From a bacterium (GTDB lineage: Bacteria > Sysuimicrobiota > Sysuimicrobiia > Sysuimicrobiales > Humicultoraceae): 19,516 bases of DNA. The position numbers and the translations under genes are program-made. The stretch is taken from positions 1 through 19,516 of the forward strand of contig JBGQGY010000069.1 in assembly GCA_041497675.1 (NCBI GenBank), written 5' to 3'. The notes beneath the pieces are model-generated. The model searched no databases. It was not told the origin of the DNA and saw only the letters and a program-made list of their open reading frames with translations. This document shows positions 1 through 19,516 of the stretch, in pieces. Within the stretch, counting starts at the first letter, position 1; each line of letters starts with the position of its first letter.

Positions 1-229
1 CGCCCAGCAGGGGCGAGCGGCGATCCTTGCTGCGCAGCCGTCGATCCGCCCGCCGCGCCTGCGCCAGGGCAAGATCGGGTGTCAGTTCCGCGAGCGCATT
101 GTACGTCGGCCCCATACGGTTGAGCCGATCCAGGAAGATCTTGGTGAGCTCCACCGACGAGATCTTCCGCGCCCGCAGTTCACGGCCCAGTTCCGTTGCG
201 GTTTTGAAGAACGGGTCGTTGTCAGCCAC
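1..229 (-). CDS. Amidase signature family protein (GatA/AtzE-like), N-terminal part; runs off the window's left edge
   Basis: Not in the ORF track. Manual translation from GTG at 229 gives MADNDPFFKTATELGRELRARKISSVELTKIFLDRLNRMGPTYNALAELTPDLALAQARRADRRLRSKDRRSPLLG. This matches the typical amidase N-terminus (S-S-V-E-L...A..AD...PL.G). A GGGGGA RBS-like sequence lies upstream. Confidence 0.85.
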   Translation of the reverse strand, partial: MADNDPFFKTATELGRELRARKISSVELTKIFLDRLNRMGPTYNALAELTPDLALAQARRADRRLRSKDRRSPLLG

Positions 230-263
230 GCGTGCATCCCCCAGATGTGTCATCACGCTGCAG

Positions 264-316
264 AAGCCTCCCCGCGGGACGGGGCCGCAGCGCCGAGCGC
301 CCCGACAGGGAGGCTT
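264..316. other. GC-rich stem-loop between rbsB and the amidase gene (possible mRNA stabiliser or terminator)
   Basis: AAGCCTCCC (264-272) pairs with GGGAGGCTT (308-316), and the inner CGGGGC (280-285) pairs with GCCCCG (299-304). It starts 4 nt after the rbsB stop and has no clear U-tract. Confidence 0.5.
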
Positions 317-320
317 GAGC

Positions 321-1220
321 CTACTTCGTCACGAGCTTCAGCGGGACGGGCGTGAACTTCGGCAGCTTCTGCCCGCCGAGCGCCTTGGCCGCCGCTTCCA
401 CCGCCAGCCGCCCCATCTCCCTGGGCTGCTGCGCGATAGTGGCGGCCAGCTTGCCTTCCTGAACCGCCTTCAGCGCGTCGGCGATAGCGTCGAACCCGAC
501 CACGAAGGTCCCTTTGTCGCGCTTCGCCGCGCCGATCGCCTGGACCGCACCCAGAGCCATCTCATCATTCTGGGCGAACACCGCGTCAATCTTCTTTTGC
601 GCCTGCAGGATATTTTCCATCACCTGGAGGCCCTTGGCCCGATCGAAATCCGCGGTCTGCGATGCCACAAGCGTGATGCCCGGATACTTCTTGAGCCCGT
701 CGCGGAAGCCCTTGCCGCGGTCACGCGCGGCCGAGGTGCCCGCGATACCTTCCAGCATGACGACGGTCCCTTTGCCGTTGAGCCGCTTGCCCACGTACTC
801 CGCCGCCATCACGCCTCCGGCAACGTTGTCACTGGCAATATGCGCGACGATGTCGCCGCCGTTCGCCCCGCGGTCAACGGTGATGACCGGGATCTTCGCG
901 GCATTGAGTTTCTTGACGGTCGGGACGATTGCGTCGCTGTCGGTCGGGTTGATGACCACCAGGTTGACCTTCTTGGCGATCAGATCCTCGATACTGCTGG
1001 CCTGTTTGGCCGGGTCGTTCTGCGCGTCAAGAATCACGAGCATGACACCGGCCTTGGCGGCCGCCGCCTGAGCCCCGTCGCGCAGGTCGACGAAGAACGG
1101 ATTGTTGAGGGTCGAGATCGACAGACCAACAGTGAACTTGGGAGCGGCCAGCGCTCCGGAGAACCCCAGCGTGAGGGCCAGGGCCGCCACGATGGTACTC
1201 GCCACTACCTGCCTGTACAT
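321..1220 (-). CDS. rbsB: D-ribose ABC transporter substrate-binding protein
   Basis: Motifs STLNNPFFV, INPTDSDA, IPVITVDR, HIASDN, ARDRGKGF, FAQNDEMALGA, VGFD and ATIAQQP are characteristic of RbsB. The N-terminus is a Sec-type signal peptide (…SGALA|APK). ATG 1220 is preferred over 1226 because it sits 8 nt from GGAGG. Confidence 0.93.
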   Translation of the reverse strand: MYRQVVASTIVAALALTLGFSGALAAPKFTVGLSISTLNNPFFVDLRDGAQAAAAKAGVMLVILDAQNDPAKQASSIEDLIAKKVNLVVINPTDSDAIVPTVKKLNAAKIPVITVDRGANGGDIVAHIASDNVAGGVMAAEYVGKRLNGKGTVVMLEGIAGTSAARDRGKGFRDGLKKYPGITLVASQTADFDRAKGLQVMENILQAQKKIDAVFAQNDEMALGAVQAIGAAKRDKGTFVVGFDAIADALKAVQEGKLAATIAQQPREMGRLAVEAAAKALGGQKLPKFTPVPLKLVTK

Positions 1221-1280
1221 CTGCATATCCTCCCTTCGGAAACTGTGTCGATCCGTCCACGATCCGGTCCGGATGCGCTA

Positions 1281-2267
1281 TCACCTCCTCCCGCGGAGTT
1301 TCTGATCGAGCAGTACGGCCAGCAGGATCACCACGCCCTTCACGACCTGCTGGTAGAACGAGGAGACGTTCAACAGATTGAGCCCGTTGTTCAGAATGCC
1401 GATCAGAAACGCCCCCAACAGCGTGCCGGCCATGGTGCCCTCGCCCCCGGCGAGCGTGGTCCCGCCCAGCACGACGGCCGCGATCGCGTCCAATTCGTAT
1501 CCCAGCCCGGCCGTGGGCTGCGCGGAATCTAGCCGCGACGTTAGGATGACGGCCGCGACCGCCGATAGAAAGCCGCTGATCGCATAAACGAGTATCTTGT
1601 ACCGGCGCACGCCGACGCCCGAGAGCCGCGTGGCCTCCTCGTTGCCGCCGATCGCATAGATGTACCGTCCGACGACCATCTGGGTCAGCATGATCGTCGC
1701 GGCCGCGAACACGAGCAGCGTGATGATCGCGGGCACCGGAATCCCGGCGGCATCACCCGTGCCCAGCCACGAGAACGCCGCGCCGAGGTCACTGATCGGG
1801 CGGCCGTCCGTGTACACGAGCGTTAGCCCGCGGGCGATCGTCAGGGTCGCCAGCGTCGCGATGAACGGCGCGACGTTGCCGTACGCGACCGCGATGCCGT
1901 TGACCGCGCCAAACCCCGTGCCGACGGCGAGCCCGGCCAGCAACGCGACGACCAGCGGCGTACCGCCCTTCAACACGCCGGCCAGCACGGCGCCGGCGAT
2001 GGCGAGGACGGAACCCACGGACAGATCGATCCCGCCGGTCAGGATCACAAACGTCATGCCGGCGGCCATGATCGCGTTGATCGAGACCTGGCGCGTGACG
2101 TTGAGCAGGTTGCCGACCGTAAGAAACGACGGCGACAGCACGGTCAGCGCCGCCATCAACAACACCATGGCCGCCGGCAGTCCAAACCGCTGCACGCGCA
2201 TCCGCAGCTCGACGCTCGAAGCGCCGCGGCCGGCTGGACGCGGCGCGGCGTCAGTGGCCGGTTGCAC
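1281..2267 (-). CDS. rbsC: Ribose ABC transporter permease
   Basis: Hydrophobic 328-aa protein with GMTFVILTGGIDLSVGS, PFIATL, GRYIYAIGGNEEATRLSG, GYELDAIAAVVLGGT and GILNNGLNLLNV. It sits within the rbs operon. Confidence 0.92.
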   Translation of the reverse strand: MQPATDAAPRPAGRGASSVELRMRVQRFGLPAAMVLLMAALTVLSPSFLTVGNLLNVTRQVSINAIMAAGMTFVILTGGIDLSVGSVLAIAGAVLAGVLKGGTPLVVALLAGLAVGTGFGAVNGIAVAYGNVAPFIATLATLTIARGLTLVYTDGRPISDLGAAFSWLGTGDAAGIPVPAIITLLVFAAATIMLTQMVVGRYIYAIGGNEEATRLSGVGVRRYKILVYAISGFLSAVAAVILTSRLDSAQPTAGLGYELDAIAAVVLGGTTLAGGEGTMAGTLLGAFLIGILNNGLNLLNVSSFYQQVVKGVVILLAVLLDQKLRGRR

Positions 2268-3774
2268 GTCGATACGTCCTCCCTGTGGCGCTCGCCATGA
2301 TCGCCTCTTGCGTGGCGTCGGCCCGCGAGAACTCGCCTGTGACCTCGCCTTCGTGCATCACTAGGATTCGATCCGACATGCCGAGGACTTCGGGGAGTTC
2401 AGACGAGATCAAGACCTGCGCCACGCCGGCGCGCGCCAGATCCACCATGAGCCGGTACAGTTCCACCTTGGCCCCAACGTCGATACCGCGCGTCGGCTCG
2501 CACAGCAGCAGCACCTTTCCGCCGCCTTCCAGCCACTTCGCTACGACGACTTTCTGCTGGTTGCCTCCCGACAGCGTCCGCGCCGTCTGTTCTGGGCCGG
2601 TCGCCTGGATATGCAGGCGATGGATCCGCTGCTCGACGACGCGCCGCTCTTCGTCGCGGCGGACGAATCCGCCGACCTGGAGCCGCTCAAGCGACGGCAG
2701 GCTGACATTGGCCCGGAGGCTCATCCCGAGCACCAACCCCTGCGTCTTGCGGTCTTCGGGCACCAGACCGATCCCATGGGCGATGGCGTCGGCGGGAGAC
2801 TCGATCTCGACCTTCCGGCCCTCGACGACGATGTCGCCCGCCTCGAGGGGAAGGGCGCCGAAGATGGCGTGGGCCACCTCGATCTTCCCGGACCCGACCA
2901 GACCCGCGATGCCCACGATCTCGCCGGCGTTCACGGTGAACGACACATTCCGGAACAGACCCGGAACCGACAGGCCCCGCACCTCCAGCACCGGCCGGCC
3001 GGCCGGCACGGGTTCCTTCGGAAACTTCTCCGTGAGTTTGCGGCCCACCATCGCCTGGATCAGCCCGTCCATGTCGATGGCGTCGCGCCGGAACGTGCCG
3101 ACGTGATGCCCGTCCCGCAGGACCGTGACGCGGTCGGCAATGCGGAAAATCTCCTCCAAACGGTGCGAGATGTAGACCACCGCCACGCCGCGGGCGGTGA
3201 GATCGCGGATGATACCAAACAACCGGTTCGTCTCCTCGATCGTGAGCGCCGCTGTAGGCTCGTCCATCACCAGGATGTCGGCATTCTGACTGAGCGCCCT
3301 GGCGATCTCGAGGGCCTGGCGTTCGGCAACGCTGAGCAGGTCCACGCGCGAGCGAGGATCCACATCGACACCAAGGTCGGCCATCGCGCGTTGCGCCTGG
3401 TTCCGCGCGGCCTTCCAATCGACGAACCAACGCCAGCGCCGCGGCTCGCGCCCCAGCAGCAGATTCTCCGCTACCGACAGCGGGCCGACTTGACTGAGCT
3501 CCTGGTGAATGATGGCGATACCGAGTTCACGCGCCTGCCGCGGGCTGGTGATCTCGACCTGCCGGCCGCGCAGCCGGATCTCGCCGCTGTCGCGGCGATG
3601 AATACCGCCAAGGATGCGAATCAGGGTCGACTTCCCCGCGCCGTTCTCGCCGAGAAGCGCGTGTACTTCGCCGGGCAGCACGTCAAGGTCGACCCGCTCG
3701 AGGGCGCGCACGCCCGGAAACTCTTTGCTGATCTCGAGCATCTGCAGCACCGGCGCCGGCGCGGGTACTCCCAT
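2251..3774 (-). CDS. rbsA: Ribose ABC transporter ATP-binding protein (tandem NBD, CUT2 family)
   Basis: Walker A GENGAGKSTL, MDEPTA, YISHRLEE and a second NBD with LSGGNQQKV and EPTRGIDVGAK. The start is placed at ATG 3774, which overlaps the rbsD stop (TGATG coupling). Confidence 0.92.
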   Translation of the reverse strand: MGVPAPAPVLQMLEISKEFPGVRALERVDLDVLPGEVHALLGENGAGKSTLIRILGGIHRRDSGEIRLRGRQVEITSPRQARELGIAIIHQELSQVGPLSVAENLLLGREPRRWRWFVDWKAARNQAQRAMADLGVDVDPRSRVDLLSVAERQALEIARALSQNADILVMDEPTAALTIEETNRLFGIIRDLTARGVAVVYISHRLEEIFRIADRVTVLRDGHHVGTFRRDAIDMDGLIQAMVGRKLTEKFPKEPVPAGRPVLEVRGLSVPGLFRNVSFTVNAGEIVGIAGLVGSGKIEVAHAIFGALPLEAGDIVVEGRKVEIESPADAIAHGIGLVPEDRKTQGLVLGMSLRANVSLPSLERLQVGGFVRRDEERRVVEQRIHRLHIQATGPEQTARTLSGGNQQKVVVAKWLEGGGKVLLLCEPTRGIDVGAKVELYRLMVDLARAGVAQVLISSELPEVLGMSDRILVMHEGEVTGEFSRADATQEAIMASATGRTYRRATGH

Positions 3775-4169
3775 CAGAAGGCGACCCCGCACCGGAGCAA
3801 CACGTTGGCAAACGGCGTGCACTCCCCGGTCCGGATGACCGCGCGCGCGTCTCGGACGCGGGCCTTCAGCGCCTGATGGCTGATCTCGACTACGGGTGTC
3901 TTCCCGAGGAGTTTCTTCAGCGCTCGGTACGCGCCTGGATTCCTCCGCGCCATCTCCTTGGCGATCACGGCACGCTCGACCACCACCTCGCCGAGCAGCG
4001 CCTCCACGGTCTGGACGAACCCGGGTACGCCGCGCGTCAGTGCCAGATCAATACGCCAGACACCGTCCGGAATCGGCAGCCCGGCGTCGGCGACGCCCAC
4101 GAGGTCCGTGTGGCCGAGGGTGGCAATGAGGTACGACAGATCGCTGTTGAGAATGCCGGCACGCTTCAC
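3774..4169 (-). CDS. rbsD: D-ribose pyranase
   Basis: This is the C-terminal part of ORF 3774..4901, starting at GTG 4169 (GTGA overlap with the rbsK stop): MKRAGILNSDLS…LGHTD…DAGLPIP…RIDLAL…IRTGECTPFANVLL.GVAF, 131 aa, classic RbsD motifs. Confidence 0.93.
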   Translation of the reverse strand: MKRAGILNSDLSYLIATLGHTDLVGVADAGLPIPDGVWRIDLALTRGVPGFVQTVEALLGEVVVERAVIAKEMARRNPGAYRALKKLLGKTPVVEISHQALKARVRDARAVIRTGECTPFANVLLRCGVAF

Positions 4170-5077
4170 CGCGCCATCGCCTCCTCCACCTCCGCGCGCG
4201 TGGGCATGGATTGTGCGCCCATGCGCGTCACCTTGAGCGCCGCGGCGTGCGTCGCAAACCGGACGGCATCGGGCAACGCCTGCCCTTCGCCGAGCGCGAC
4301 ACCCAGGGCCGCGGCGAACGCGTCGCCGGCGGCGGTAGTGTCCAGCGCCTTGACCGGAATCGCCGGCACGTGCGCGCGACCAGTGGTGGACACATAGACC
4401 GAGCCTCGCTCGCCGAGCTTGATGACCGCGGCGCTCGCCCCCTTCTGCAAAAGCGCCTCGGCGGCCCGTTCGGCCTCTGAAATGCTGGTGACGGGCAGGC
4501 CGGTCAGCACGCGCGCCTCGGTCTCGTTGGGGTTGATGACGTCGATCAGGGGCCAGAGGTCGTCGGGCAGCAGGGCCGCGGGCGCCGGGTCCAGGCAAAC
4601 GATCGCGCCGGCCTCCCGACCGAGGCGCGCAGCCCGCACCACGGCGTCCATGGGGACTTCCAACTGCAGGAGCACCACACGGGCCGCGGCGATGACGCGG
4701 GCGGCGGCGACGACGTCCTCGGGCCGGAGACGCATGTTGGCGCCCGGGGCCACGACGATCATGTTCTGGCCCGCGGCATCTACCGTGATGAAGGCGACGC
4801 CCGTCGCGGCGCCGGGTTCCGTGCGGACCCGCGCGACGTCGATACCCTCGCGTCGGAGGCCGGAGAGTTGCTGCACACCGAACGCGTCGGCGCCCACGCA
4901 CCCGATCATCGTCACGGCAGCGCCCAGCCGCGCGGCGGCCACGGCCTGGTTTGCCCCCTTGCCGCCGGGGAAGGTGCCGAACTCGGCGCCCGTCAACGTC
5001 TCGCCGACCTGGGGCAGGCGGGGCGTCTTCACCACCAGGTCCATGTTGAGACTACCGACCACGCACACCTGAACCAT
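4166..5077 (-). CDS. rbsK: Ribokinase (PfkB family)
   Basis: VVGSLNMDLV, PGGKGANQAVAAARLG, G.VG.D.FG, LLQLEVP, PNETEA and DTTAAGDAF (anion hole with catalytic Asp). First gene of the rbs operon. Confidence 0.95.
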   Translation of the reverse strand: MVQVCVVGSLNMDLVVKTPRLPQVGETLTGAEFGTFPGGKGANQAVAAARLGAAVTMIGCVGADAFGVQQLSGLRREGIDVARVRTEPGAATGVAFITVDAAGQNMIVVAPGANMRLRPEDVVAAARVIAAARVVLLQLEVPMDAVVRAARLGREAGAIVCLDPAPAALLPDDLWPLIDVINPNETEARVLTGLPVTSISEAERAAEALLQKGASAAVIKLGERGSVYVSTTGRAHVPAIPVKALDTTAAGDAFAAALGVALGEGQALPDAVRFATHAAALKVTRMGAQSMPTRAEVEEAMAR

Positions 5078-5223
5078 CTGCCCACCGTCTGTCAGGCTCT
5101 CACACGGCCTGGGTTCAGCCCCATCGTACGCCGCCTGGCCCTGGGACCACCATCAGGTCGCGGATGTAGGTGCAGGATCGAAGAGGAAGCCCCCGGCCTG
5201 CCGCGCAACACAGCATAGTGAAT

Positions 5224-7947
<2,724 letters not shown>

Positions 7948-7954
7948 CGCCCAC

Positions 7955-7974
7955 CATCGGGTTAATGACCGATG
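7955..7974 (+). promoter_or_regulatory. Candidate transcription-factor binding palindrome CATCGGGTTAATGACCGATG upstream of the HhH/site-2 protease genes
   Basis: Perfect inverted repeat CCATCGG-N8-CCGATGG (7954-7975) in a 75-bp intergenic gap, 16/20 identical to the site at 18995-19014. A -10-like TAGCGT at 7996-8001 would put its centre near -43. Confidence 0.6.
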
Positions 7975-8022
7975 GCGTCCGAGCCCGCCGCCCGGTAGCG
8001 TGGAACTGGGGAGGCGGTGGCT

Positions 8023-8904
8023 ATGCGCGACGAGCACAATGTGGCAATTGCCAGCCGCCTGGACGAAGTGGCGAGCCTGCTCGAAGAGCAAGGCGCCAAT
8101 CCGTACCGGGTGGCTGCCTATCGTCGGGCCGCGGAGCGTATTCGGGTGCTCGATGAGCCTGTGGCGGAAATCCTGCGTACTGAAGGGCTCCAGGGCCTGA
8201 CGCGTCTGCGCGGCATCGGAGAGAGCATCGCGAGATCCATCCACCTTCTGGTCGTGCTGGGCAGACTGCCAATGCTGGAACGCCTTCGCGGCGAGAGCGA
8301 CCCCGAGGCGCTGTTGCGGTCTGTACCCGGCATTGGACGGAAGCTCGCGGAGCGGTTCCACGACGAACTGGGCATCGCCTCGCTGCCTGAACTGGAGGCG
8401 GCTGCGCACAACGGCCGGCTCCACGACATTGCCGGCATGGGTGAGAAGCGGCTGGCAGGGATCCGGGATGTTCTTGCCAACCGGCTGGGTCGGTTGCGAG
8501 AACACGCTGTATCGGCGGCGGTCGAAGAGCCTGTCGTCGCAGAGCTCTTGGACGTCGACCGAGAATATCGCGAGAAGGCGGCGGCAGGTGTCCTGCACAG
8601 GATTACGCCGCGGCGCTTCAATCCGACCGGCAAAGCGTGGCTCTCCGTATTGCATACTCGGCGCGGGACCCGGGAGTACACCGCGTTGTTCTCCAACTCC
8701 GCGCGGGCACACCGAAAAGGCAGGACTCGCGACTGGGTTGTACTCTACTACGACGACGGCGACCGTCAGTCCACCGTGATCACCGCGACGCGCGGTCTGC
8801 TGCGGGGCCGGCGAATCGTCGTCGGCCGGCTTGCCGAGTGTGAGCAGTACTACGAGACCGTGAAGCCCGAAGCACAAACCCTGGCCATCGCCAGCGTGGC
8901 CTAA
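8023..8904 (+). CDS. Helix-hairpin-helix DNA-binding protein: PolX-type N-terminal (8-kDa/fingers-like) domains plus an uncharacterised C-terminal domain; no polymerase or PHP domain
   Basis: N..IA..L.E.A.LLE.QGANPYRVAAYRRAA matches the PolX N-terminus. Three HhH motifs are present (LRGIGESIA, VPGIGRKLA, IAGMGEKRL). No GSxRR/DxD palm motif. ATG 8023 lies 8 nt after GGAGG. Confidence 0.8.
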   Translation: MRDEHNVAIASRLDEVASLLEEQGANPYRVAAYRRAAERIRVLDEPVAEILRTEGLQGLTRLRGIGESIARSIHLLVVLGRLPMLERLRGESDPEALLRSVPGIGRKLAERFHDELGIASLPELEAAAHNGRLHDIAGMGEKRLAGIRDVLANRLGRLREHAVSAAVEEPVVAELLDVDREYREKAAAGVLHRITPRRFNPTGKAWLSVLHTRRGTREYTALFSNSARAHRKGRTRDWVVLYYDDGDRQSTVITATRGLLRGRRIVVGRLAECEQYYETVKPEAQTLAIASVA

Positions 8905-8928
8905 CTCCCCGCCCGGGGGCACCGAGAG

Positions 8929-10044
8929 ATGCAGAGGGGATCTCTCACCTTCGCAAGAGCCTTCGGCATCCCACTTGCCATCCACTACAGCTGGCCCCTG
9001 ATCGCGGCGCTCGTTGCCTTCTCGCTGGCCAGGGGGTACTTTCCAGCCGAGTATCCCGGATGGGCGCCTGAACTCTACTGGATAACTGCGGTTGTCACGA
9101 CCATCTTTTTCTTTGCTTCGGTCGTCACCCACGAACTGGGGCACTCAATTGTCGCGCTGCGGGAGGGACTGCCGGTTCGCAGCATCACGCTGTTCATCTT
9201 CGGCGGCCTGGCGCAGATCGGGCGCGAGCCACGGACGGCCGCCGCAGAGCTTCGCATCGCAGCTGCGGGACCGGTGGTGAGCCTGGGCCTTGCGGGCCTC
9301 TTCCGGGCGCTGAGCTTTCTACCCGCAGCGCCGATGCTGGCGGCCTCGGGTACCTACCTCAGCCGTATCAACCTCCTGCTGGCCCTGTTCAACCTGCTCC
9401 CCGGGTTCCCGCTGGACGGCGGGCGGATCCTGCGGGCCATCCTGTGGGCGACAACGGGCAACTTGCGAACGGCGACGCGCCAGGCGGCCACGGTGGGTCA
9501 GGTCCTGGCGTTCGGGTTGATCTTCCTGGGCGTCTGGCAGATATTCCTCGGCAACCCGCTGAACGGGCTGTGGATCGCCTTCATCGGCTGGTTTCTCAAC
9601 AGCGCCGCCGAATCCAGCCTGCACCAGGCCGCCCTCGGCCAATTGCTGGAAGGTGTCAAGGTACGAGATCTCATGACGGGAGAGTGCCCGGTCGTGGACG
9701 GCAGCACGTCGATCGAGCAGTTCGTGGACGAGCACGTGCTCCGCGCCGGACGCCGCTGCGTCCTCGTGGCCGAGGATCAGTCATTGCGCGGCATGATGAC
9801 CCTGCACAACATCCGAACTGTCCCGCGTGAACACTGGAGTCGGCGTACGGTGGCAGAGGTCATGACCCCTGTTGAGCAATTGCAGCGTGCGCGGCTCGAC
9901 GAAGACGTGTGGTCTCTGCTGCAGCGGATGGATGAGGCCGACGTGCATCAGATGCCGGTGACGGACGACGGGCGCCTGGTGGGCCTCATCACCCGCGAGC
10001 ATCTGATCCGGTACATCCGCACCCGTCTGGAGCTGGGCATCTAG
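8929..10044 (+). CDS. Site-2 protease (peptidase M50) with C-terminal tandem CBS domains
   Basis: Zinc motif HELGH, ITLFIFGG, IAAAGP, FNLLPGFPLDGGRILRA and several TM segments. The C-terminal CBS pair reads VRDLMT…, VAEVMTP…MPVTDDGRLVGLITRE. Confidence 0.93.
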   Translation: MQRGSLTFARAFGIPLAIHYSWPLIAALVAFSLARGYFPAEYPGWAPELYWITAVVTTIFFFASVVTHELGHSIVALREGLPVRSITLFIFGGLAQIGREPRTAAAELRIAAAGPVVSLGLAGLFRALSFLPAAPMLAASGTYLSRINLLLALFNLLPGFPLDGGRILRAILWATTGNLRTATRQAATVGQVLAFGLIFLGVWQIFLGNPLNGLWIAFIGWFLNSAAESSLHQAALGQLLEGVKVRDLMTGECPVVDGSTSIEQFVDEHVLRAGRRCVLVAEDQSLRGMMTLHNIRTVPREHWSRRTVAEVMTPVEQLQRARLDEDVWSLLQRMDEADVHQMPVTDDGRLVGLITREHLIRYIRTRLELGI

Positions 10045-10057
10045 GCCCCGTGCCAGG

Positions 10058-11308
10058 CTACTTCGTTTCGATCGCCACCGAGGCGGTCATGTTCCAGCGA
10101 AGACGCGGATCCTGTTTGTCCAACGCGATGACCACCGTGTAGACGATGTCGCCAAATCGATTCTCGCCGAACGGCTTGATCTCGGTGACGCGACCCGCTA
10201 GCTCCAGCCCGGGAATGGCGTCAAGGGTAATCTTTACCGCGTTGCCCGTTTTAACGCTGACGATGTTCAGTTCGGTCAGATCGGTCGTCTCGATGCGCCA
10301 GATGGAGAGATCACCCACACGCACCACCGGGGCGCCCGGCGCCACAAACTCGCCCATTTTCGGACCGACCCACGCCACAGTGCCGGCCAGGGGCGACCGG
10401 ATCTCGGACTGATCCAGGGCCGCCGACGCCTGTTTGACTGCTGCTGCCGCCGAGGCCACGTCGGCTTCCGCCGCGGCGACCTCTTCGCGCCGCGCGCCCG
10501 CCATCACGAGGTCGAGTTGGGCCTTCGCCCGTCTCACGTCGGCCCGCGCCGCGTCGATCTCTTCTTTACGGGCGCCGGTTTGCACCAGGCTCAACTGCTG
10601 GCGGGCCGAGGTGACCTGCGCCATCGCGCCGGCGTGTTCGGCGCGCACAGCCTCCAGATCCGCCTGGGCCGTGGCCATACGCGTGCGCGCCTGGTCGACG
10701 GATTGCTGCGGCACCGCCCGCTGCGCGACCAGCTGCTCCATCCGCTGGAGATCGTCTTGCGCCATCTTGAGCGCCAATTCGGCCTGAACGACGCGCTGGC
10801 GCGCAGAATCCGCCCGCTTCACTGCCTGGTCCACCTGCGCCTGCGCCTGCGCCCGCTCTTGCTCGCGCGCGCCCGCGATCACCTGGTTGTACCGCGCCTC
10901 GGCGGCCTGGAGCGCCGCCCGCGCCACTTCGACATCCTGAGCACGCGCACCGGCGCGCAGTTGTGCGAGTCTGGCCTGGGCGCGTTGCCTCGCCGCTTCG
11001 GCCTGTGCGACCGAGGCCGCGGCCTGCCGCGCGGCGTCCGACCGCACGAGCGCCTGGTTCTCACGGACGCGATCGCCGACGTTCACCAGGATCTCCGCGA
11101 TCGCCCCACCGGTGGTGAGGCTCAGTGTCACGCCCTTGACCGGGACGACGCGCGCTTCGGCGACGACCTGGTCACCGGCCTTGACCGGCGGGAGTTTCTG
11201 ACCCGGATCCTGGGACGACGACGGCGCACCGCGCAGACGGCCGGACACGACGTACCCGACCGCCAGGACGACGGCGAGCACCGCCGCACCGATCACGATC
11301 CTTCTCAT
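10058..11308 (-). CDS. HlyD/MacA-family periplasmic adaptor (membrane fusion protein)
   Basis: N-terminal TM anchor, lipoyl half-motifs (GAIAEILVNVGDRV and IRSPLAGTV…GEFVAPGAPVV), a long Ala/Gln coiled coil and a C-terminal beta-barrel (LRWNMTASV). AGGAGG RBS. Confidence 0.9.
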   Translation of the reverse strand: MRRIVIGAAVLAVVLAVGYVVSGRLRGAPSSSQDPGQKLPPVKAGDQVVAEARVVPVKGVTLSLTTGGAIAEILVNVGDRVRENQALVRSDAARQAAASVAQAEAARQRAQARLAQLRAGARAQDVEVARAALQAAEARYNQVIAGAREQERAQAQAQVDQAVKRADSARQRVVQAELALKMAQDDLQRMEQLVAQRAVPQQSVDQARTRMATAQADLEAVRAEHAGAMAQVTSARQQLSLVQTGARKEEIDAARADVRRAKAQLDLVMAGARREEVAAAEADVASAAAAVKQASAALDQSEIRSPLAGTVAWVGPKMGEFVAPGAPVVRVGDLSIWRIETTDLTELNIVSVKTGNAVKITLDAIPGLELAGRVTEIKPFGENRFGDIVYTVVIALDKQDPRLRWNMTASVAIETK

Positions 11309-11332
11309 CTCCGGATCCTCCTGCCCCGATTC

Positions 11333-13717
11333 CTACTCGTACGCCAGCACGTCGCGGACGGTGAGCCGCGACGCGTTCCAAGCCGGCAGGAAACTGGCGA
11401 TGGCGGCCAACACGATCACGATACCGAACCAAAGTCCCACACCGACAATCGAGAACCGGTAGGCGGGGACCGACCGCAGGAACGCCTGCCCGACCACCGC
11501 GCTCAACACATACCCGAGCGGGAACGCCAACAGCATGCCGATGAGCCAGCTCAGGAAGCCGATCAGCATCCCCTCGACCATCACGATCTGCAGCACGGAT
11601 CGGTCGGAGGCGCCGATCGCCCGCATCACACCGATCTCTCTCGTCCGCTCGATCACGTTGATGCTCATCGTCCCCATCAGACCCAGCCCGCCGACGACGG
11701 CAAGCAACACCGCCATGATCATCAAAAAGACGATGATGACATTGAACTGCGCCGTGATCTGCTTGCGGATCTCGACAATCGTCTGGTTCGAACTGATCCG
11801 CAGACCCAGACGGCGGAAGTGGGTCTCCAACGCCCGGGACACCTGTGCCGTGTAGGCGCCGTCGTGCCGGTCCGTCACCAACTGTACCCGATCGGCGCGG
11901 CCGTACGTGCGGATCACGCGCGACACGTAGGGATAGTTGGCGTAGGCGAACGGTCCGGACAGGACACCCTGCACCAGGCCGACGACGCGCCAGGTGGACT
12001 TGAGCGTGCCGATCTTCACCACAATCTCATCGCCAACGTTGATATCGGGTTCTTCCTTGGTCAGGTCGGTGTTGACGACGAGGGCGTTTTCATCCTCGGG
12101 AAGCAACCACCGGCCCTTGAGAAGCACCGGGTCGAGCATCTCGGTTGCCGCCGGCAGCGAGATGACAAAGATGCTGACGCTCTCAGTGTTGTTGGCTCTG
12201 ATCCTCCGCGCGGAACGAAATCCCCAGCTCTCGGCCTTGACCACCCCAGGGATGCGAAGGGCCTCGCGCCCGAGCTGATCGATGCGATACGATCGGCTGA
12301 ACTCGAGCTGTACGTCGTAGTTCCAGTACTTGAACAGCCGGTCGAGCGCGCCCACGAGCGAGCTCTGGACGCTGAGGATACCGACAAAGATCGCACCGGC
12401 GAGTGTCAATGTCCCGAGCGTGAGTGCCAGCCGCCCTTTGCGGCGAAACGTATTCCGCAGCGACAACAACATCGGTCGGGACACACCTTGGACCCGTTCG
12501 ACCAGCCCATCAATGCGCCCGCGCCCCGCGGTCTCGCCCAAGCCATAGTCGCCGATCGCCTTTCGCACGGTGACTCGGGTCCCGCCGAGAATCGGAAAGA
12601 GCGCGGCCACCAGCGGGACTACGAGTCCCGCGGCGACCTCCAGCGCGAAAATTCTCGGCGGAAGACTGTACCCGCCGATTTCGAAGTTCAGCAGCGACGC
12701 GGTGAACCCGGCGAAGGCGCGGGCGCCCACGACCCCAAGCGGCACCGACACGATCAACGCCAGGAGTCCGTACCCCGCGACCGTGGCCAGGTACATGCCG
12801 ACGATCTGGTCCGTCCGGGCGCCCACCGCCTTCATGATGCCCACCTGGCGAACCTGCGACGTCAACAGCGAGGAGACCGTGTTGACGACCAGCAGGCCGC
12901 TGAGCACGAGGGACAGCGCGCCCAGGACCCCGAGGATAAACGTCATCGCCTCGAGCTGACTGTCGGCCCAGTGCTTCCCCGGCTGGAACACGAGCGTGAA
13001 GAACACCTCGCGCCCGCTGTTCTCGATCTTGTTGCGGACTTCGGCGGCGACCTTCTCGACGTGGGTCTTGTCGAGCCGGTTCTCGGCGACGACAAAGTTT
13101 AACTGGTTGAAATCGCGCGTCTCCCCGAGCCACTCCAGGCTGTCCATGCTGATGTAGCCGTAGGCGACGCCGCGGAAGAACGACGCGATCTGGCTGAGGT
13201 CGTGGACCGTGCCGGCGACCCGCATGGATCGCTCCTTGCCGTCGGGCGTCTCGATGAGCAGATGGTCGCCCACCCGCGCGCCCACCATGGCGATCGACGA
13301 TCGCTCGATGAGCACCTCGCGCTGTGGGGGCGGCCAGGCGCCGGTTTTATGCGTGACCTTGTTGACGCGGATCTCCTTGTAGTCGCGTAGGGCGACGAGC
13401 AGCATCTCGCGCCACTGTCCCGGCCCGACGCTGTACCGCACGGTTACGAACCGCCGGCCGTCGGCGTCACCCACCGACCGCATGTGGCGGATCGTCTCCA
13501 CCAGGTCTTCGTCGAAGGAATCCTTCGTAAAGATCTGCGCGCTCGCCGGGCTCGTCGCGGCGTAGGCCGCCCGCAGGTCGCGGGTCATGATGACCCCCGA
13601 TCCCGCGATCATGCCGACGGCAAAGACGCCGACCGCGATCGAGAGCACCACCAGGATGGTCCGGGTCCTGTTGCCCCACAGGTCGGCGGAGACTTTGCGC
13701 CATCGTGGACTAGCCAC
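11333..13717 (-). CDS. ABC transporter permease with two MacB_PCD/FtsX repeats (type VII ABC)
   Basis: Start at GTG 13717 (GGAGG 6 nt upstream, overlapping the ATPase stop). There are two FtsX halves: [15 protein letters not shown]…[11 protein letters not shown] and [12 protein letters not shown]…[14 protein letters not shown]…PAWNASRL. About 794 aa. Confidence 0.9.
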
Positions 13718-14831
13718 TCGCGTCCTCCCGGCGCTGCGCCGAGACGTTCTCGGCCTCGCGCTGCTCCGCGACCTGGCTGACGGCGTTGCGAAGCGCCTCG
13801 GATTGAGCGACCAGCGCCAGAAATGCCTGCCGGTCGAGCGCGATCGCCTCGGCGCCCGTCTCGGGCGCGGCGCAGACCGTCGCGACGGCGTTCCCACCGT
13901 GCAGCAGCTCGATCTCGCCAAAGAACTGCCCCCGGCCCATCGTGCTGACGACGAACTCGCGCCCCTCGCCCCGCTGGACGCGCACATCCACCTCACCCTT
14001 CGTGATGAGGTAGAAGTGCTCGACCGGGTCTCCCCGGCGGATGATCACCGCACCCGGCGGAAACTTCAGCGGCTCGAGGCGATGCGTGACGCCGACCAGT
14101 TGCTCTTCGGTCAGCGATGGGAAGACGCGGCCCAAGTATTCTTCGATCACCGCGCCGTCGGACAAGACGATCGTGCGCGATACCGCCCGCGCCAGGTCGT
14201 TGTCGTGCGTGACCATCAGGATGGTTTTGCCTTCTTTGACCAACCGCTCGAACAGTCGAAAGACCGACTGCGCCGTCTTCGAGTCGAGGTTGCCGGTCGG
14301 TTCGTCGGCGACGAGAATCGGCGGGTCGTTGGCCAGGGCGCGGGCGATGGCCGCCCGCTGTTGCTGACCCCCGGAGACCGATGATGGCAGCTTGTGGGCC
14401 TGGTCGGCCAGTTCGACCAGCTCCAGCAGCCGCATGGCGCGGTCGACGCGCTCGCGGGGCGCATATAGCCCTGCGAAGTCCATAGGGAGGATGACGTTTT
14501 CCAGTACCGTCAGCGTCGGCAGCAACTGGAAGAACTGAAAGATGATGCCGAGCGCGCGGCCCCGCCAGACGGCCATCTGCCCCTCGCTCAGCGTGTGGAC
14601 CGGCGTACCGGCCACGAAGACCTGGCCGGACGTCGGCCGGTCGATCCCGGTGATCATGTTAATGAGCGTCGACTTCCCGCTGCCGGACTTTCCGATGACC
14701 GCCACAAACTCGCCGGCGTCGACCTTAAGGTCGACGCCTTTGAGAGCGACAAACACGCCTGCCGCGCTTTCATAGGATTTGACGACGTTACGCAGATCGA
14801 TCAGATAGCCGTTGTGACCGGAGCCGGTCAC
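13710..14831 (-). CDS. ABC transporter ATP-binding protein (LolD/MacB-type) fused to a C-terminal cyclic-nucleotide-binding-like (CAP_ED) domain
   Basis: Walker [18 protein letters not shown], signature VSGGQQQR, Walker [13 protein letters not shown] and VTHD. These are followed by FPSLTEEQL…[27 protein letters not shown]…[10 protein letters not shown]…ATV.A…LDRQAFLAL, the cNMP-binding fold pattern. Confidence 0.9.
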
Positions 14832-16171
14832 GGTGCTCCTCCGACGGCGAGGATGACCTGGACGCGCGCGAGGTGATGATTGAAGCGGGCCGACGCGAGG
14901 CTGAACTCGGCCTGCGCCAGTGAGGCTTGCGCGGACGTCATTTCGAGCAACGTCCCGACGCCGGCCTGGTAGCGGACGCCGGCGATCCTGGTCGCTTCGC
15001 GGGCCTGATCGACGCCCCTGCCGGTGGCGGCCAGTTCGCCGTTGGCCTGCTCGAGCGCGAGCCAGGCCTGCAGGACGTCGAGTTCGATCCGCTGGCGGGT
15101 TTGCGCCTCGACGACCTTGAGTTGTTCCACTCTAAGTTCGGCCTCGCGGATGCGCTCGCGCGTGATGCCGCCGTCGTACAGCGACAGCGTGACCGCGAGC
15201 GTCGCCGACCAGGCGCCGACAATGCTGCCCGTCGGCCCGCTGAATTCGTACCCCGAGCTGAGCGAGAGGTTGGGACGGCCGCCGCTGGCCGCCAGCTCGA
15301 TGCTGGCGCGCGCGGCCTCGGCGCGGGCACGCACCTCGACCAGTTCCGGGCGGGTGCGGAGCGCCTGCTCGATCGCCCCCTCCATCGTGCCTGCAACCGC
15401 CCGCGGTTCGAGCGTATCGCTGAACGCCAGCGGTGTTCCCAGCGGCTGGTTCAGCAGGGCATTGAGCGACGCGTCGGAGTTGCGGACACCCACCTGCGCG
15501 CGTACCAACCCCTGTTGCGCGCCGGCGACTGAGACATCGGCCTGCAGCGCGTCGAACTCCGCCGCAACACCGGCGGCCACGCGGGCGCGAGCGACCTGGA
15601 GACTCTCGTTGGCCTGATCCAGCGTGCGCTGCGCCGCGGCGAGATTCTCACGCGCCAGCAGCGCGCTGAGATAGGCCTGCTGCGCCTGAAACACGACCTG
15701 CTGAATGGTGCGCGCGAAGACCGCCTGCGCGCCGCGCAGGTTGGCTTCGGCCAGTGCGATTTGCGACTCGATCCGTCCACCGGTGTACAGCGGGAACTGC
15801 AGCCCCACCCGCACGGCCACCTGGTTCGTATCCGAGGCCGGAAACGCGAACGTGATCGTCGGCGGCGCCGGCCCAAACGGATTGGGGATCGTGACGGTTT
15901 GGCCGGGAATCGACTGCATCTGTGTGTACGAGCCCGAGACGGCGACGGACGGCTGGCGGGCGCCACGCGCCTGCGCAAGCTGCGCCTGAGCCACCGCGAC
16001 GTCAAAGGACGCAGCGCGAACCTGGAGGTTGCTCTGCGCAACGGTCGTGGCCACCTCGGCAAACGAAATGCGCCGAGGCGCCTGCGGAGTCTGCGCGCGG
16101 ACGCCGGCCGGCCGCACGCCGGCCAGCAGCGCAACCATCACGAGCACCCCGATCCAACGGCTCATGCGCAT
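14828..16171 (-). CDS. TolC-family outer membrane efflux protein
   Basis: Signal peptide (…GVRA|Q) and two OEP repeats ([10 protein letters not shown] and TLSLYDGG), [25 protein letters not shown]. The stop overlaps the ATPase start (GTGA). The start could also be ATG 16165. Confidence 0.9.
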
Positions 16172-16198
16172 CCCCCACAGACGGCCCGTACGACCCTG

Positions 16199-16218
16199 TA
16201 TCGACCCCTAACCCTAGG
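16199..16218 (-). promoter_or_regulatory. Weak copy of the shared palindromic motif and possible internal promoter region upstream of tolC
   Basis: The minus strand reads CCTAGGGTTAGGGGTCGATA, 13/20 identical to the 7955 site. It overlaps the palindrome ACCCTAGGGT (16211-16220) and a -10-like TAGGGT. Confidence 0.3.
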
Positions 16219-16263
16219 GTGCCGTGAACGCGCTCGTCGTCGCGCCGGGCACCTGGGGCCCGG

Positions 16264-16905
16264 TCAGGTGACCAAGTGTTGCTGCAGGGCCACGGCCACG
16301 GCCTCGGTGCGGCCTGCGACGCCGAGCTTCGAGAGGATGCTGCTCACGTGGAACCGGACCGTCGAGCGGCTCACCACCAGACGCTCGGCGATCGCTGGGT
16401 TCGACAGCCCCTGCACCATCAGGACCAGCACCTCACGTTCTCGCGGCGTGAGGTCGTGACCGATGGCCTCCGGCTGGGCGGCCGCGTGGATAAGCGCCTG
16501 CGTGGCCTCCGGGGCGAGCGTGCCACGACCGGCCCGGGCGGCGCGGATGGCGTTGGCCAGATCGTTGGCCCCGACATTCTTCAACAAGTAGCCGATGGCG
16601 CCGGCCTTCAGCACGGGCTGCACGAGGTTCTCCTCAGGGAAACTGGTCAGCGCGATCACCTGCACGTGGGGATAGGACTCCTTGATCCGCTGGGTCGTGA
16701 CCGCTCCATCCATCCCGGGCATCGCCAGGTCCATCAGGACGACGTGCGGCTGGAGTTGCCCGCATAGACGGACCGCATCCTCGCCGCTGCCGGCTTCGCC
16801 GACCAGTTCCAGATCGTCGTTGACCATAAGGAACGCCGCAAGCCCGCTGCGAACGACGGCATGGTCGTCGACGATCATCACGCGGATGCGCTCCGCTGCG
16901 CTCAC
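16264..16905 (-). CDS. NarL/FixJ-family two-component response regulator (REC + LuxR HTH)
   Basis: [12 protein letters not shown], phosphoacceptor LMDLAMP, ALTSF, GYLLK and [12 protein letters not shown]…[22 protein letters not shown]. Start at GTG 16905 overlaps the kinase stop (GTGA). Confidence 0.95.
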
Positions 16906-18518
16906 GCCCGCTCTTCCCCCGGCGCCAGCCAGATGCACGCCACCTCGGTGCCCTGCCCGGGCCGGCTGGTGATCCGCAACACGGCGTCGATCGACTCGGC
17001 CCGCTCGCGGATGATGCGCAATCCAAAATGGTCCGCGGGGACGTTCGCGGGATCGAACCCCGCTCCGTCGTCAGCAATCCGCAACTCCACGCCCTCCACG
17101 GCCTGACGGAGCGCTATGTCAACGCGCTTAGCCTTCGCGTGTTTCATGATATTATTCAGCGCCTCCTGCGCCACTCGGTACATCGCGATGTTCACATCAG
17201 GAGGCAGCGGGCGCTGGCCCTCCACCGCCAGCGTGATGGGCAGCAGCGTGCGGCCCGAGACCGCGTCCGCGAGCTGCCGAAGCAGATCGCTCAGGGGCAC
17301 GTCGATCAGCGCCGACGGCCGCAGTTCCAGAAGCAGCGTCCGCATCTCGGCCAGCGCCCCTTTAGTCAGGCGGCGCAGCTCGTCCAACCGCCGGCGGCCT
17401 TCGTCCGGGTTGCGCTCCCACAGCCGCGGGACCACCTCGGCGATCAGGCTGGCGGAGAATAGCGTCTGCGTCACGGCATCGTGGAGTTCGCGGGCCAGAC
17501 GGCTGCGTTCGGCGGCCGCGGCCGCTTCTTCGGCCTGGGCGCGCAGACGGGCGTTCTCGATGGCGAGCGCCGCATGGTCGCTAAGCGTGACGGCTAGGGC
17601 GACCTCCTCGCCGGAAAACTGCCTCGAGCTCGGATAGTAGAGCACCAGGCCGCCGTACACTTCATCCTTCACGATCAGCGGGACGGCGAGCAAGGCATGG
17701 TAGCGCGCAAAGGTGCGCTCGAGCAGCCGGCGCTGTCTTGGGTCATCGATCAAGAGATGGTCGTCAAGAATAGTGCCGACGGCGTCGCGCACGGCAACCG
17801 GCCGGCGTTCTTGTGCGGCGCGGCCCACTGCGCCGTGACCGATCGGAATCGTGACTCCGGCGACAAACTCCGCGTCGAGCCCCCGCGCGGCTTGAATGTT
17901 GAGGGCGGTCCCATCGGCGCGCAGCCGCCAGACCGCCACGCCTTCGGCGCCAAGCAACTGGCCGGCCTGGATGACCACGAAGTCCAGGATCTCCTCGAGT
18001 GGACGATTCGAGTTGAGGATCGCGAGCACGTCGCGCAAGGCCTCGGCTACCTTGCGGCGCCGCTCGAGTTCTTGCGTGCGCTCCTCAACCCGGTGCTCCA
18101 GCGTTTGATAGGCCACGACGCGCTCGGTCACGTCGCGCATGATGCCCTCGACGGCCACGACGGTGCCACGCGCGTCCCGCACCGGGTTGACGCTGTGCTC
18201 CGTCCAGACGGTGCGGCCATCCTTGTGGGTGAACCGGACCGTCACGGGATCTGATGCCGCGTTCGAAGGTTGCTGCAGCATGGCCTCAATCAACGGCCGG
18301 TCATCCGGATGCACGATCCTCCAGACGAGCTCCGGGTCCGCGTAATGTTCCTCCGGTGAAAACCCATCGAAGCGAATCACCGACGGACTGATGTACTCGA
18401 AACCGGGCCGGGGGCCAAGACGATAGCGATAGATAACATCCCAGGCGTTTTCGGCCAGGTGCCGGAATCGCCGGATGGTACGTTCAGAGAGCCCGGGTGC
18501 CGGCGGCGGATCGGTCAA
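16902..18518 (-). CDS. Cytoplasmic sensor histidine kinase, PAS/PAC-GAF-HisKA_3-HATPase
   Basis: PAS (YISPS…VHPDDR…KDGRTVW…RDVTER), GAF ([13 protein letters not shown]…[10 protein letters not shown]), H-box [16 protein letters not shown]-box [11 protein letters not shown], and [22 protein letters not shown]. No TM helix. The likely start is TTG 18518 after GGGAG, just past the upstream gene's stop. Confidence 0.92.
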
Positions 18519-18529
18519 GCCGGCTCCCG

Positions 18530-18901
18530 CTACGTCCGCTTCGCGGCGACACGCCGAATCGTATAGGTGATCCACAACACGTTCCACGCTGCCAGCAGCA
18601 TGCCGGCCAACGCCAGCCGCGTGACGTCCATCACCGGCTTGACTTTCGTCTCTTGACCGGTGATCTCCAGGACGGCTATCGGTCTGATGGACACGCCCGC
18701 GCCGCCGCCCCCACCCTCGCCGGACTCCTCTTCTTCCTTCTCCTTCTCCTTGCTGCGGCCCACGCCGAACCCAAAACCGTACTGGACCTTAGCGATTGGT
18801 ATGATAGTGCGCCCGTTGACCTGAAACGGCTCACCGAAGACTGTCTTGACCGACGCCCGATCGTGCACTTGCCCAATGCGGTTCAGCATCTCTTCCAACA
18901 T
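18530..18901 (-). CDS. YtfJ/GerW-family protein with a C-terminal hydrophobic helix
   Basis: VKTVFGEP…GRTIIPIAKV.YGFGFG.G…GGGGGAGVSIRPIAVLEI matches the Spore_YtfJ pattern. GGAGGG RBS upstream. Confidence 0.85.
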   Translation of the reverse strand: MLEEMLNRIGQVHDRASVKTVFGEPFQVNGRTIIPIAKVQYGFGFGVGRSKEKEKEEEESGEGGGGGAGVSIRPIAVLEITGQETKVKPVMDVTRLALAGMLLAAWNVLWITYTIRRVAAKRT

Positions 18902-18994
18902 TGCCGATCCCTCCCCGGGTTCCGCAGAATTCCCTCTTTCATTCTCTCATCTCATCGCCCAGAAAACAGGGTAGGCCTTCTCTAATTCTTCGAG

Positions 18995-19014
18995 CATCGG
19001 GCGGAAACCCGATG
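18995..19014 (-). promoter_or_regulatory. Candidate operator palindrome CATCGGG-N6-CCCGATG upstream of the YtfJ-kinase-regulator operon
   Basis: Perfect 7-6-7 inverted repeat in the intergenic region with no U-tract in either direction. It is near-identical to the 7955 site. A possible extended -10 (TGnGAGAAT) lies at 18949-18941. Confidence 0.6.
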
Positions 19015-19069
19015 TTGCCCAAAAGGGGAACCGCCTAGAGTAACACGCGGGGTAAGGAGTCTAGCACGC

Positions 19070-19516
19070 TCACGCGAGACCAAGCAGCGGGCACAGCACC
19101 CTGAGCCCCACCCAGATCAGGATGCCACCGGTGACGTCGAGCCAGATGCCCGACGTCATCATCTCTTTCAACGGGACCAACCCCGAGCCATAGACGATCG
19201 CGTTGGGTGGCGTCGACACCGGCAGCATGAAGCCAAAGCTCGCCCCCAGCGTCGCGCCGAGCACCGGGGGGATGGGATTCATGCCGCTGCCCGCGGCGAC
19301 GGCGATGATCGTCGGGACCAGCATGCTCGCCGACGCCGTGTTCGACGACGCTTCCGAAAGCACGATGCCCAACACGATCCCCACCGCCGTCAGCGCCCAC
19401 ACGCTGTCGGCGCCCGCGGCGCGCACCACTGCTGTCCCAACGGCTTCGGCGAGTTTCGTCTCAAACATCAGTTTGCCAAGCGACAGCCCCCCGCCGAAGA
19501 GCAGGATCGTGCCCCA
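19070..19516 (-). CDS. DASS/SLC13-family divalent anion:Na+ symporter, C-terminal part; 5' end lies outside the window
   Basis: The frame is open from the window edge: WGTILLFGGGLSLG…SEASSNTASA…ASFGFMLPVSTPPNAIVYGSG. This contains the second SNT motif and the PxxTPPNA motif of DASS transporters. Confidence 0.9.
   Translation of the reverse strand, partial: WGTILLFGGGLSLGKLMFETKLAEAVGTAVVRAAGADSVWALTAVGIVLGIVLSEASSNTASASMLVPTIIAVAAGSGMNPIPPVLGATLGASFGFMLPVSTPPNAIVYGSGLVPLKEMMTSGIWLDVTGGILIWVGLRVLCPLLGLA

Follow-up and report, generated by a model that had tools for sequence, protein, structure and literature searches.

What binds the two similar palindromes found on one short contig, and which genes do they control? 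The window, i.e. the whole stretch of 19,516 nt analysed here (JBGQGY010000069.1), is the entire contig C69 of the genome under study, a 3.97-Mb assembly of an uncultured Sysuimicrobiota bacterium (GCA_041497675.1, hereafter G000). One palindrome (copy 1) precedes the genes of a helix-hairpin-helix (HhH) protein and an M50-CBS protease, and the other (copy 2) precedes ytfJ, a histidine kinase gene, a NarL-type response regulator gene and a string of efflux genes (Table 1). The original prediction, made from this DNA alone, had taken both operons for a local two-component regulon under that regulator. Our analysis points to a much wider system: with a probability of about 80%, the palindromes are operators of one dimeric transcription factor, which would recognise the box ATCGGGY-N4-RCCCGAT in a large stress and anaerobic/low-energy regulon spread across this uncultured phylum.

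Two palindromes and a spacing-specific motif family

Both 20-mers are present at the positions originally given and are 16/20 identical when each is read towards its downstream genes, against 14/20 when both are read on the same strand. The common orientation that had been pointed out therefore carries little meaning, the sequences being palindromic. Copy 1 lies 8 nt past the stop codon of a P-type ATPase gene and 48 nt ahead of the HhH ATG at 8023, and copy 2 lies 56 nt past the stop codon of a symporter gene and 94 nt ahead of the ytfJ start (- strand).

Taken in isolation, the pair stands out only mildly. The sequence CATCGG-N8-CCGATG occurs 3 times in the genome, with about 1.6 expected from the half-site counts (2627 and 2462), and CATCGG/CCGATG pairs over spacings 2-14 add up to 22 copies. 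Within 4 mismatches, copy 1 has 7 other neighbours and copy 2 has 25. Same-contig pairs of non-genic hairpins at most 20 kb apart that have a common 6-mer arm and spacing number 10 per 3.97 Mb; the window pair belongs to these 10, and true repeats account for some of the others.

The shorter core ATCGG-N8-CCGAT has 24 copies in G000, 14 of them non-genic (binomial P 2.6e-7, given a non-genic share of 13.2% for the genome); this division comes from a crude codon-usage gene caller of our own, which called 86.8% of the genome coding. At each of the other spacings (0-7, 9-15), 0-5 non-genic and 5-22 genic copies were found. Since the non-genic excess exists only at N8, the window copies are members of a spacing-specific intergenic family. 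A position weight matrix (PWM) from the 14 non-genic sites gave the 18-bp consensus ATCGGGY-N4-RCCCGAT, with weakly A-rich flanks. Its matches across the genome were non-genic in 12 of 13 cases at a score of at least 20, and in 22 of 33 at a score of at least 16. Copy 1 scored 23.8 (10th best in the genome) and copy 2 scored 27.0 (3rd best). These are the only two sites of the window, where the next-best score was 8.6 and no motif was found upstream of the P-type ATPase gene. The exact core ATCGGG-N6-CCCGAT occurs 9 times in G000, with 0 occurrences of a reversed control, and such exact-core counts give support that is independent of the PWM training.

Distribution and conservation in the phylum

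The exact core was found in 35 of the 41 genomes of a first set and in 64 of the 73 genomes (at least 85% complete) of a phylum set, with 0 occurrences of the reversed control in all of them. These tallies include two unpublished genomes, G019 and G010 (the latter with zero sites), on which nothing else rests. A regulon restricted to the two operons of the window, as first proposed, is not supported by a motif that is both phylum-wide and genome-wide (9 exact cores and at least 22 non-genic PWM hits in G000).

High copy numbers were found in G009 (18), G017 (16), G023 (12) and G004 (11), with G020 also within the 11-18 range. Fourteen of the 18 exact copies of G009 lie within 704-807 kb, and a PWM scan of 135 kb in this region returned 23 sites, nearly all between genes. 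The region G009:C1:704000-830000 has the look of a regulon "island", with about 23 sites in about 125 kb together with nos, hydrogenase, molybdenum (Mo)-enzyme, V-ATPase and tricarboxylic acid (TCA) cycle genes.

In the same-genus genome G001, we looked at 15 of its 16 ATCGG-N8-CCGAT matches. Each of the 7 sites with a PWM score of at least 18 has a counterpart at the orthologous position in G000, with conserved arms but a different centre, while 7 low-scoring and mostly genic matches have none. A one-mismatch search in five motif-poor genomes returned 10-20 matches, against 1-2 for the control, most of them with G or A at position 7. Such matches could not be sorted without gene calls, and we drew nothing from them except for the paired sites near the candidate regulator gene of G037 (see below).

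Probable operators rather than hairpins

The same palindromes could be RNA or DNA hairpins, either as U-tract-less terminators of the ATPase and symporter genes or as repeats similar to repetitive extragenic palindromic (REP) elements, or the window pair could be a chance match. They resemble REP elements and intrinsic terminators in being short GC-rich intergenic palindromes, some of them after stop codons. Both window copies come after a same-strand stop codon, one copy of G000 (C23, position 21890) sits between convergent genes and is followed by TTTT, and coincidence for an isolated pair is only about 1 in 20-30 per 20-kb stretch. However, the remaining evidence makes this explanation highly improbable. 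The absence of a terminator U-tract at the two window copies, already noted in the original prediction, was confirmed by the lack of any following T-tract, and no terminator-like sites were found. The RNA folds of the window copies were no better than those of shuffled sequences (z -0.9 for copy 1 and -0.2 for copy 2).

The composition of the half-sites also fits a protein-binding site better than a hairpin. Of the 162 halves in 81 unique exact-core sites, 147 have C or T at position 7, and the half combinations CC, TT and CT occur 25, 12 and 32 times, with 23.4, 11.1 and 32.2 expected if the halves were independent. Positions 7 and 12 are complementary in 38 of the 81 sites, with 34.8 expected. 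The halves combine as if independent, so there is no compensatory pairing.

Repeats related to REP elements or to miniature inverted-repeat transposable elements would have repeated flanks, while blastn-short found no dispersed copies of the intergenic DNA of the window in the genome and the flanking DNA is not repeated; the copy number is also low. Moreover, copies are found in divergent promoter regions, such as malic enzyme/universal stress protein (Usp; two copies in both G000 and G009), unknown gene/Hsp20 and kinase/adenosine kinase. They lie 20-180 nt ahead of start codons and are often paired 36-63 bp apart. The palindromes are indeed scattered through the genome, which the original prediction had regarded as a sign of a repeat or terminator, but they do not behave as either of them. 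A fixed spacing with non-genic excess at N8 only, the upstream position, arms conserved across genera around a free centre, and independent half-sites are consistent with operator sites of a dimeric DNA-binding protein, and this part of the original prediction is probably correct. A sigma-70 promoter scan found nothing close to either window copy, although such a scan says little for this phylum.

Genes beside the sites

The genes next to the sites were identified by Pfam in G000, G009 and fifteen other genomes. Stress functions are represented by Usp, CBS, CBS-BON, Hsp20 and OsmC proteins, and anaerobic respiration by nosZ with nosD, nosL and an Rrf2 gene, multicopper oxidases and cupredoxins. 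Electron transfer includes molybdopterin oxidoreductases with MoeA/MobB and NiFe hydrogenase with HypA and HypB. In central and energy metabolism we found PFOR, 2-oxoacid oxidoreductase, V-type ATPase, aconitase, citrate synthase, malic enzyme and cytochrome bd. P-type ATPases and solute-binding proteins represent transport, and a sigma-70 gene, receiver-only proteins and several HisKA_3 two-component operons represent regulation. These neighbours form a coherent set. Weak Pfam scans of the site-adjacent proteins without a family revealed no DNA-binding domain, except for a MarR-like protein in G009. Two unknown proteins of 257/258 aa beside sites are mutually unrelated, and one of them looks membrane-bound.

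The window locus and its relatives

The + strand gene order of the window (ATPase, HhH protein, M50-CBS protease) agrees with the original prediction. The - strand encodes, from left to right, HlyD, an FtsX permease, an ABC ATPase with a cyclic nucleotide (cNMP)-binding domain, TolC, the NarL-type regulator, the PAS-GAF-HisKA_3 kinase, YtfJ and the symporter.

Table 1. Features of the window, with coordinates in nt from its first letter.
Feature	Coordinates	Strand	Basis or remark
Candidate operator copy 1, CATCGGGTTAATGACCGATG	7955-7974	+	core ATCGGGT-TAAT-GACCGAT at 7956-7973
Candidate operator copy 2, reverse complement CATCGGGTTTCCGCCCGATG	18995-19014		core ATCGGGC-GGAA-ACCCGAT at 18996-19013
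Segment of ~90 bp with copy 2 at its centre	18968..19057 (approximate)		absent from C68 and G001
Type-II P-type cation ATPase	5170..7947	+	Pfam
HhH protein, N-terminal half of a PolX-like protein	8023..8904	+	Pfam HHH_8, HHH_5; first gene after copy 1
M50 (site-2-type) metalloprotease with CBS domain	8929..10044	+	Pfam; second gene after copy 1
HlyD-type adaptor	10058-11308	-	Pfam
FtsX-type permease	11333 to ~13700	-	Pfam
ABC ATPase fused to cNMP-binding domain	13710-14831	-	Pfam
TolC-like OEP	14828-16171	-	Pfam
Efflux genes, downstream in the ytfJ-kinase-regulator string	10058..16171	-	Pfam
NarL/LuxR-type response regulator	16264..16905	-	Pfam
PAS-GAF-HisKA_3 histidine kinase	16902..18587	-	Pfam
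YtfJ-family protein	18530..18901	-	Pfam; first gene after copy 2
Na/sulfate-type (DASS) symporter, 3' part	19070..19516	-	Pfam; gene cut by contig end

Another contig of G000, C68 (7 sites in 19.6 kb), overlaps the right end of the window in reverse orientation with 94-95% identity (window 18645-19516, C68 18802-19583) and reads Usp, symporter, ytfJ. The ends of C68 and C69 look like two co-assembled strain variants of one locus, in which case C68 would directly continue the window. In G001 a single contig contains Usp (with a box upstream), symporter, ytfJ, kinase, regulator, ABC and HlyD genes separated by short intergenic gaps, and the Usp gene that precedes the symporter has its own motif copy in both G001 and C68. 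The spacer between symporter and ytfJ is 78 nt in C68 and about 52 nt in G001, both without the palindrome.

The ATPase-HhH-M50-CBS block that contains copy 1 is absent from the locus in G001 and G002. Upstream of the M50-CBS orthologs of G035 and G027 (47-48%) there is no site with a PWM score of at least 11, with only about 55 nt covered in G035. Because the segment, the block or the site is missing at the loci of the relatives, both window copies would be lineage-specific recruits to the regulon.

The efflux genes have two peculiarities of their own. The TolC-like gene between the regulator and the ABC ATPase is found only in G000, while G001 and G002 pass directly from ABC to regulator, and the C-terminal cyclic-nucleotide-binding domain of the ABC ATPase is an uncommon fusion for MacB/FtsX-type efflux. 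The HhH protein (293 aa) matches the first ~190 residues of PolX-like frames of 570-800 aa in the relatives with 30-40% identity. No full-length ortholog of it was found in the 40 relatives, and it may be a truncated paralog that lost the polymerase and PHP parts. At 1-5077 the long + strand open reading frames have no Pfam match; the genuine genes of this region are on the - strand, namely a ribose-type ABC operon (rbsB, rbsC, rbsA, rbsD and a PfkB-type kinase gene) and an amidase fragment at the contig start.

Besides the box studied here, G000 contains a second family of non-genic palindromes, AACTCGGT-CCGG-ACCGAGTT, with about 7 copies (among them C80 at 14203, 15059 and 16145, and C45 at 20376 and 15479), which may be the box of another regulator.

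The two-component system of the window

The binder first proposed is the response regulator of the window, which would bind the box, autoregulate its own operon and make of the two operons a local two-component regulon. Copy 2 is indeed upstream of the operon encoding this regulator, dimers of the NarL family bind palindromes of about 18-20 bp, and the partner kinase has PAS and GAF domains. Nevertheless, the distribution of the pair is far narrower than that of the motif. Orthologs of the regulator were found in 3 of 40 relatives (G002 with 94%, G001 with 83% and G027 with 69% identity; the next best has 51%) and those of the kinase in 4 of 40 (G002, G001, G035 and G027), against a motif present in 35/41 and 64/73 genomes. 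The five genomes with 11-18 exact sites (G009, G017, G023, G004 and G020) have no ortholog of the regulator.

The expectation that the motif would be kept upstream of the orthologous operons and co-occur with the regulator also fails at the ytfJ promoter, where the site is absent in G001 and in the C68 version, and at least 20 further non-genic sites occur elsewhere in G000. The closest solved relatives of the window regulator are VraR and then NarL, and its recognition helix differs from that of the C72-type candidate discussed below. Taken together, these comparisons make it very unlikely that the neighbouring regulator governs a local regulon through the box; it is an unlikely binder and would instead be a target of the motif. 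A binder of the NarL family, with a gene set like that of DosR, is a reasonable guess, and in the choice of this family the original prediction finds support, but not in its choice of the adjacent regulator for this role.

Candidate binders elsewhere

A soluble GAF-HisKA_3-HATPase kinase and a NarL regulator are encoded at G000:C72:12298-14130 (regulator 13477-14130), beside a tandem Usp gene. Of the 41 genomes, 32 have an ortholog of this C72-type regulator (at least 66% identity), among them 19 of the 20 in which at least 4 exact sites occur, and the recognition helix KTVQTHR is invariant in 30/30 orthologs. A site with a PWM score of at least 18 lies within about 1.5 kb of the regulator gene at 13 of 30 loci, and in G032 and G038 this gene has Usp, CBS-BON and cytochrome bd genes around it, together with a site. 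On these grounds we infer that the C72 pair is the most likely binder, with a chance that we would still put somewhat short of even.

The small Rrf2-family gene directly upstream of nosZ (G000:C23:29267-29742, or L047 10268-10743; G009:C1:794985-795508) provides another candidate. If its product, an iron-sulfur regulator (G000:C23:29267-29659), were the binder, the box would be a redox or nitrogen-oxide responsive operator. The best site of G000 (PWM 29.9) is centred 74 nt before this gene. Of the 14 orthologs with upstream DNA, 10 have a site with a score of at least 13 at 72-128 nt ahead of the gene, and in six genomes this distance is 72-75 nt. Sites were also found at less closely related Rrf2 genes in G028, G033 and G036, and the protein has the Cys cluster motif C-x5-C-x-C-x3-C. 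Yet the box does not co-occur with the Rrf2 gene across genomes: orthologs (at least 47% identity) were limited to 15 of the 41 genomes and reached only 11 of those 20 that have at least 4 sites, while G027, G032 and G034, with 4-6 exact sites, have a single IscR-like Rrf2 gene with a different recognition helix and no upstream site. The known Rrf2 boxes are also longer (23-29 bp). We therefore consider this protein an improbable binder of the whole family.

Neither of the two candidates matches the phyletic distribution of the motif perfectly, which leaves room for another factor, be it a different NarL paralog, a CRP/FNR-type regulator or a protein without a Pfam match. Read as 5-6-5 (TCGGG-N6-CCCGA), the box has the geometry of CRP/FNR boxes, and a CRP-type gene in G027 has upstream sites. 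On the other hand, the factors of this kind that could be named do not follow the motif. Close orthologs of the CRP-type gene of the G009 island were found only in G017 and G040, with a fragment only in G004 (11 sites), and this gene was rejected for its distribution. Rex was discarded since the family was not found in 5/5 genomes searched. The distributions of two further regulators are mismatched as well. That of the malic-enzyme operon of G009 has orthologs with 78-90% identity in six genomes, including the nearly motif-free G005 and G015, and none in G000. That of the operon of a dCache-HAMP-GAF kinase (C26) has a site upstream in G000, G016 and G020, with the system absent from G009 and broken in G023. 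A binder outside the two leading candidates is, in sum, doubtful, though a good deal more plausible than the Rrf2 protein.

In G023 (C30:7258-8129) the gene of the dCache-HAMP-GAF kinase persists as fragments (61-63% identity) with in-frame stops, being intact in G017 and absent from the same-genus G009. This two-component system appears to be decaying in the genus of G009 and G023.

Overall reading and its weight

What is read directly from the genomes is the motif family, with its positions, its conservation and the kinds of genes next to it. In the regulon proposed here, the factor would control two promoters of the window, one for the HhH protein and M50-CBS protease genes and the other for the string of ytfJ, kinase, regulator and efflux genes. 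These operons would be ordinary and recently recruited members, and the local two-component system would be a target and not the master. If the C72 pair were the binder, it could act as DosS/DosR do, with a signal perceived at the GAF domain, phosphorylation of the regulator, binding of its dimer to the box and a change in transcription. The identity of the factor, its signal and the choice between activation and repression are inferred.

Several points weigh against this picture. Our gene caller overlooked the gene of the ABC ATPase and fused the Rrf2 frame with nosZ. Both window copies were among the 14 sites used to train the PWM, and the ranks of all training sites are consequently circular. 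Since related genomes do not count as independent observations, the tallies exaggerate the support. For the C72 pair in particular, no site was found at most 1.5 kb from the regulator gene in G000, G001, G009, G017, G023 and G028, which have the closest regulator sequences, and of the 6 genomes that lack an exact site, 4 (G005, G021, G024 and G037) do encode the regulator. It was not found in G012 (93% complete), with 3 exact sites that include a very good one before Hsp20. Its nearest solved relatives are VraR (182 bits) and not DevR (124 bits for 3c3w), and the nosZ-linked Rrf2 protein, for its part, is associated with a site of its own that is just as striking.

A more ambitious version may be formulated, in which a soluble GAF kinase and a NarL regulator with a new 7-4-7 box run a master programme of the DosR kind for hypoxia, limited energy or dormancy. 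Its islands of up to about 100 kb would bring stress proteins together with nosZ, hydrogenase, Mo-enzymes, PFOR and V-ATPase, and it would still be recruiting operons, the segment of about 90 bp around copy 2 being polymorphic in the sampled population. We propose this version tentatively, with odds appreciably below even.

Under the regulon reading, one 18-bp box would predict which genes switch together, namely those of stress proteins, nitrous oxide reduction, hydrogen use, fermentation-type oxidoreductases, ion pumps and sensor systems. The motif thereby gives a testable way into the gene regulation of a phylum that has no cultured members. The annotation of the window would also change, with the efflux operon and its two-component system and the HhH/M50-CBS pair as members of a global programme and not a self-contained circuit. 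Should the GAF-kinase/NarL assignment be true, a DosR-style dormancy circuit would exist beyond Actinobacteria and would be able to use a different box geometry.

Comparison with known regulatory systems

A full-text search for both hexamers of the box gave no description of it among the matches listed, which looked unrelated and were uninformative. A passage search of the paper on the phylum CSP1-3/Sysuimicrobiota found no mention of a regulon, two-component system, transcription factor, universal stress or palindrome.

Operators of the NarL/LuxR type are 16-20 bp inverted repeats bound by a dimer of GerE-type helix-turn-helix domains, as in the 7-2-7 sites of NarL, the 6-4-6 box of ComA and the 18-bp tra box, and the 7-4-7 layout found here falls within the range of this family. 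Rrf2 operators (NsrR, IscR, RsrR) are similar in context, with a nosZ-linked gene that adjoins denitrification genes, a site preceding it and an iron-sulfur Cys motif. They differ in having other half-sites within their longer boxes, and the distribution of the Rrf2 gene falls short of that of the motif.

The closest resemblance is to the DosR/DevR regulon of Mycobacterium tuberculosis, where the 20-bp Dev box is likewise a palindrome with a T-S-G-G-G half-site, often paired upstream of its targets. The content is alike too, with Usp, Hsp20/alpha-crystallin, CBS proteins, a P-type ATPase, a zinc protease and GAF-domain HisKA_3 kinases on the DosR side. We found the corresponding targets by Pfam next to sites in G000, G009, G018, G032, G034 and G038, namely Usp, Hsp20, CBS, zinc protease, P-type ATPase and a Usp-linked sensor. 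Rv2625c is described as a probable zinc protease of the DosR regulon (PMC2442614). This regulon comprises about 50 genes induced by hypoxia, with TTSGGGACTWWAGTCCCSAA as the Dev box consensus (PMC2275270).

Judged on the 81 unique exact-core sites, the box is not a Dev box, in which GGG and CCC are 8 bp apart and GGG is followed by A-C. Here they are separated by 6 bp, and GGG is followed by C or T in the large majority of halves given above. The recognition helix of DevR reads K-T-V-K-N and that of the C72-type candidate K-T-V-Q-T, the two differing at 2 of the 3 positions that contact DNA in DevR, and the candidate sequence is nearer to VraR. The regulon proposed here further includes nosZ, hydrogenase, Mo-enzymes, PFOR, V-ATPase and TCA enzymes. 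By analogy, it seems to work like a DosR-type regulon, with membership of that group no more than putative. What emerges is a phylum-wide operator motif and a proposed regulon of an already known general kind, with a new box and a candidate binder.

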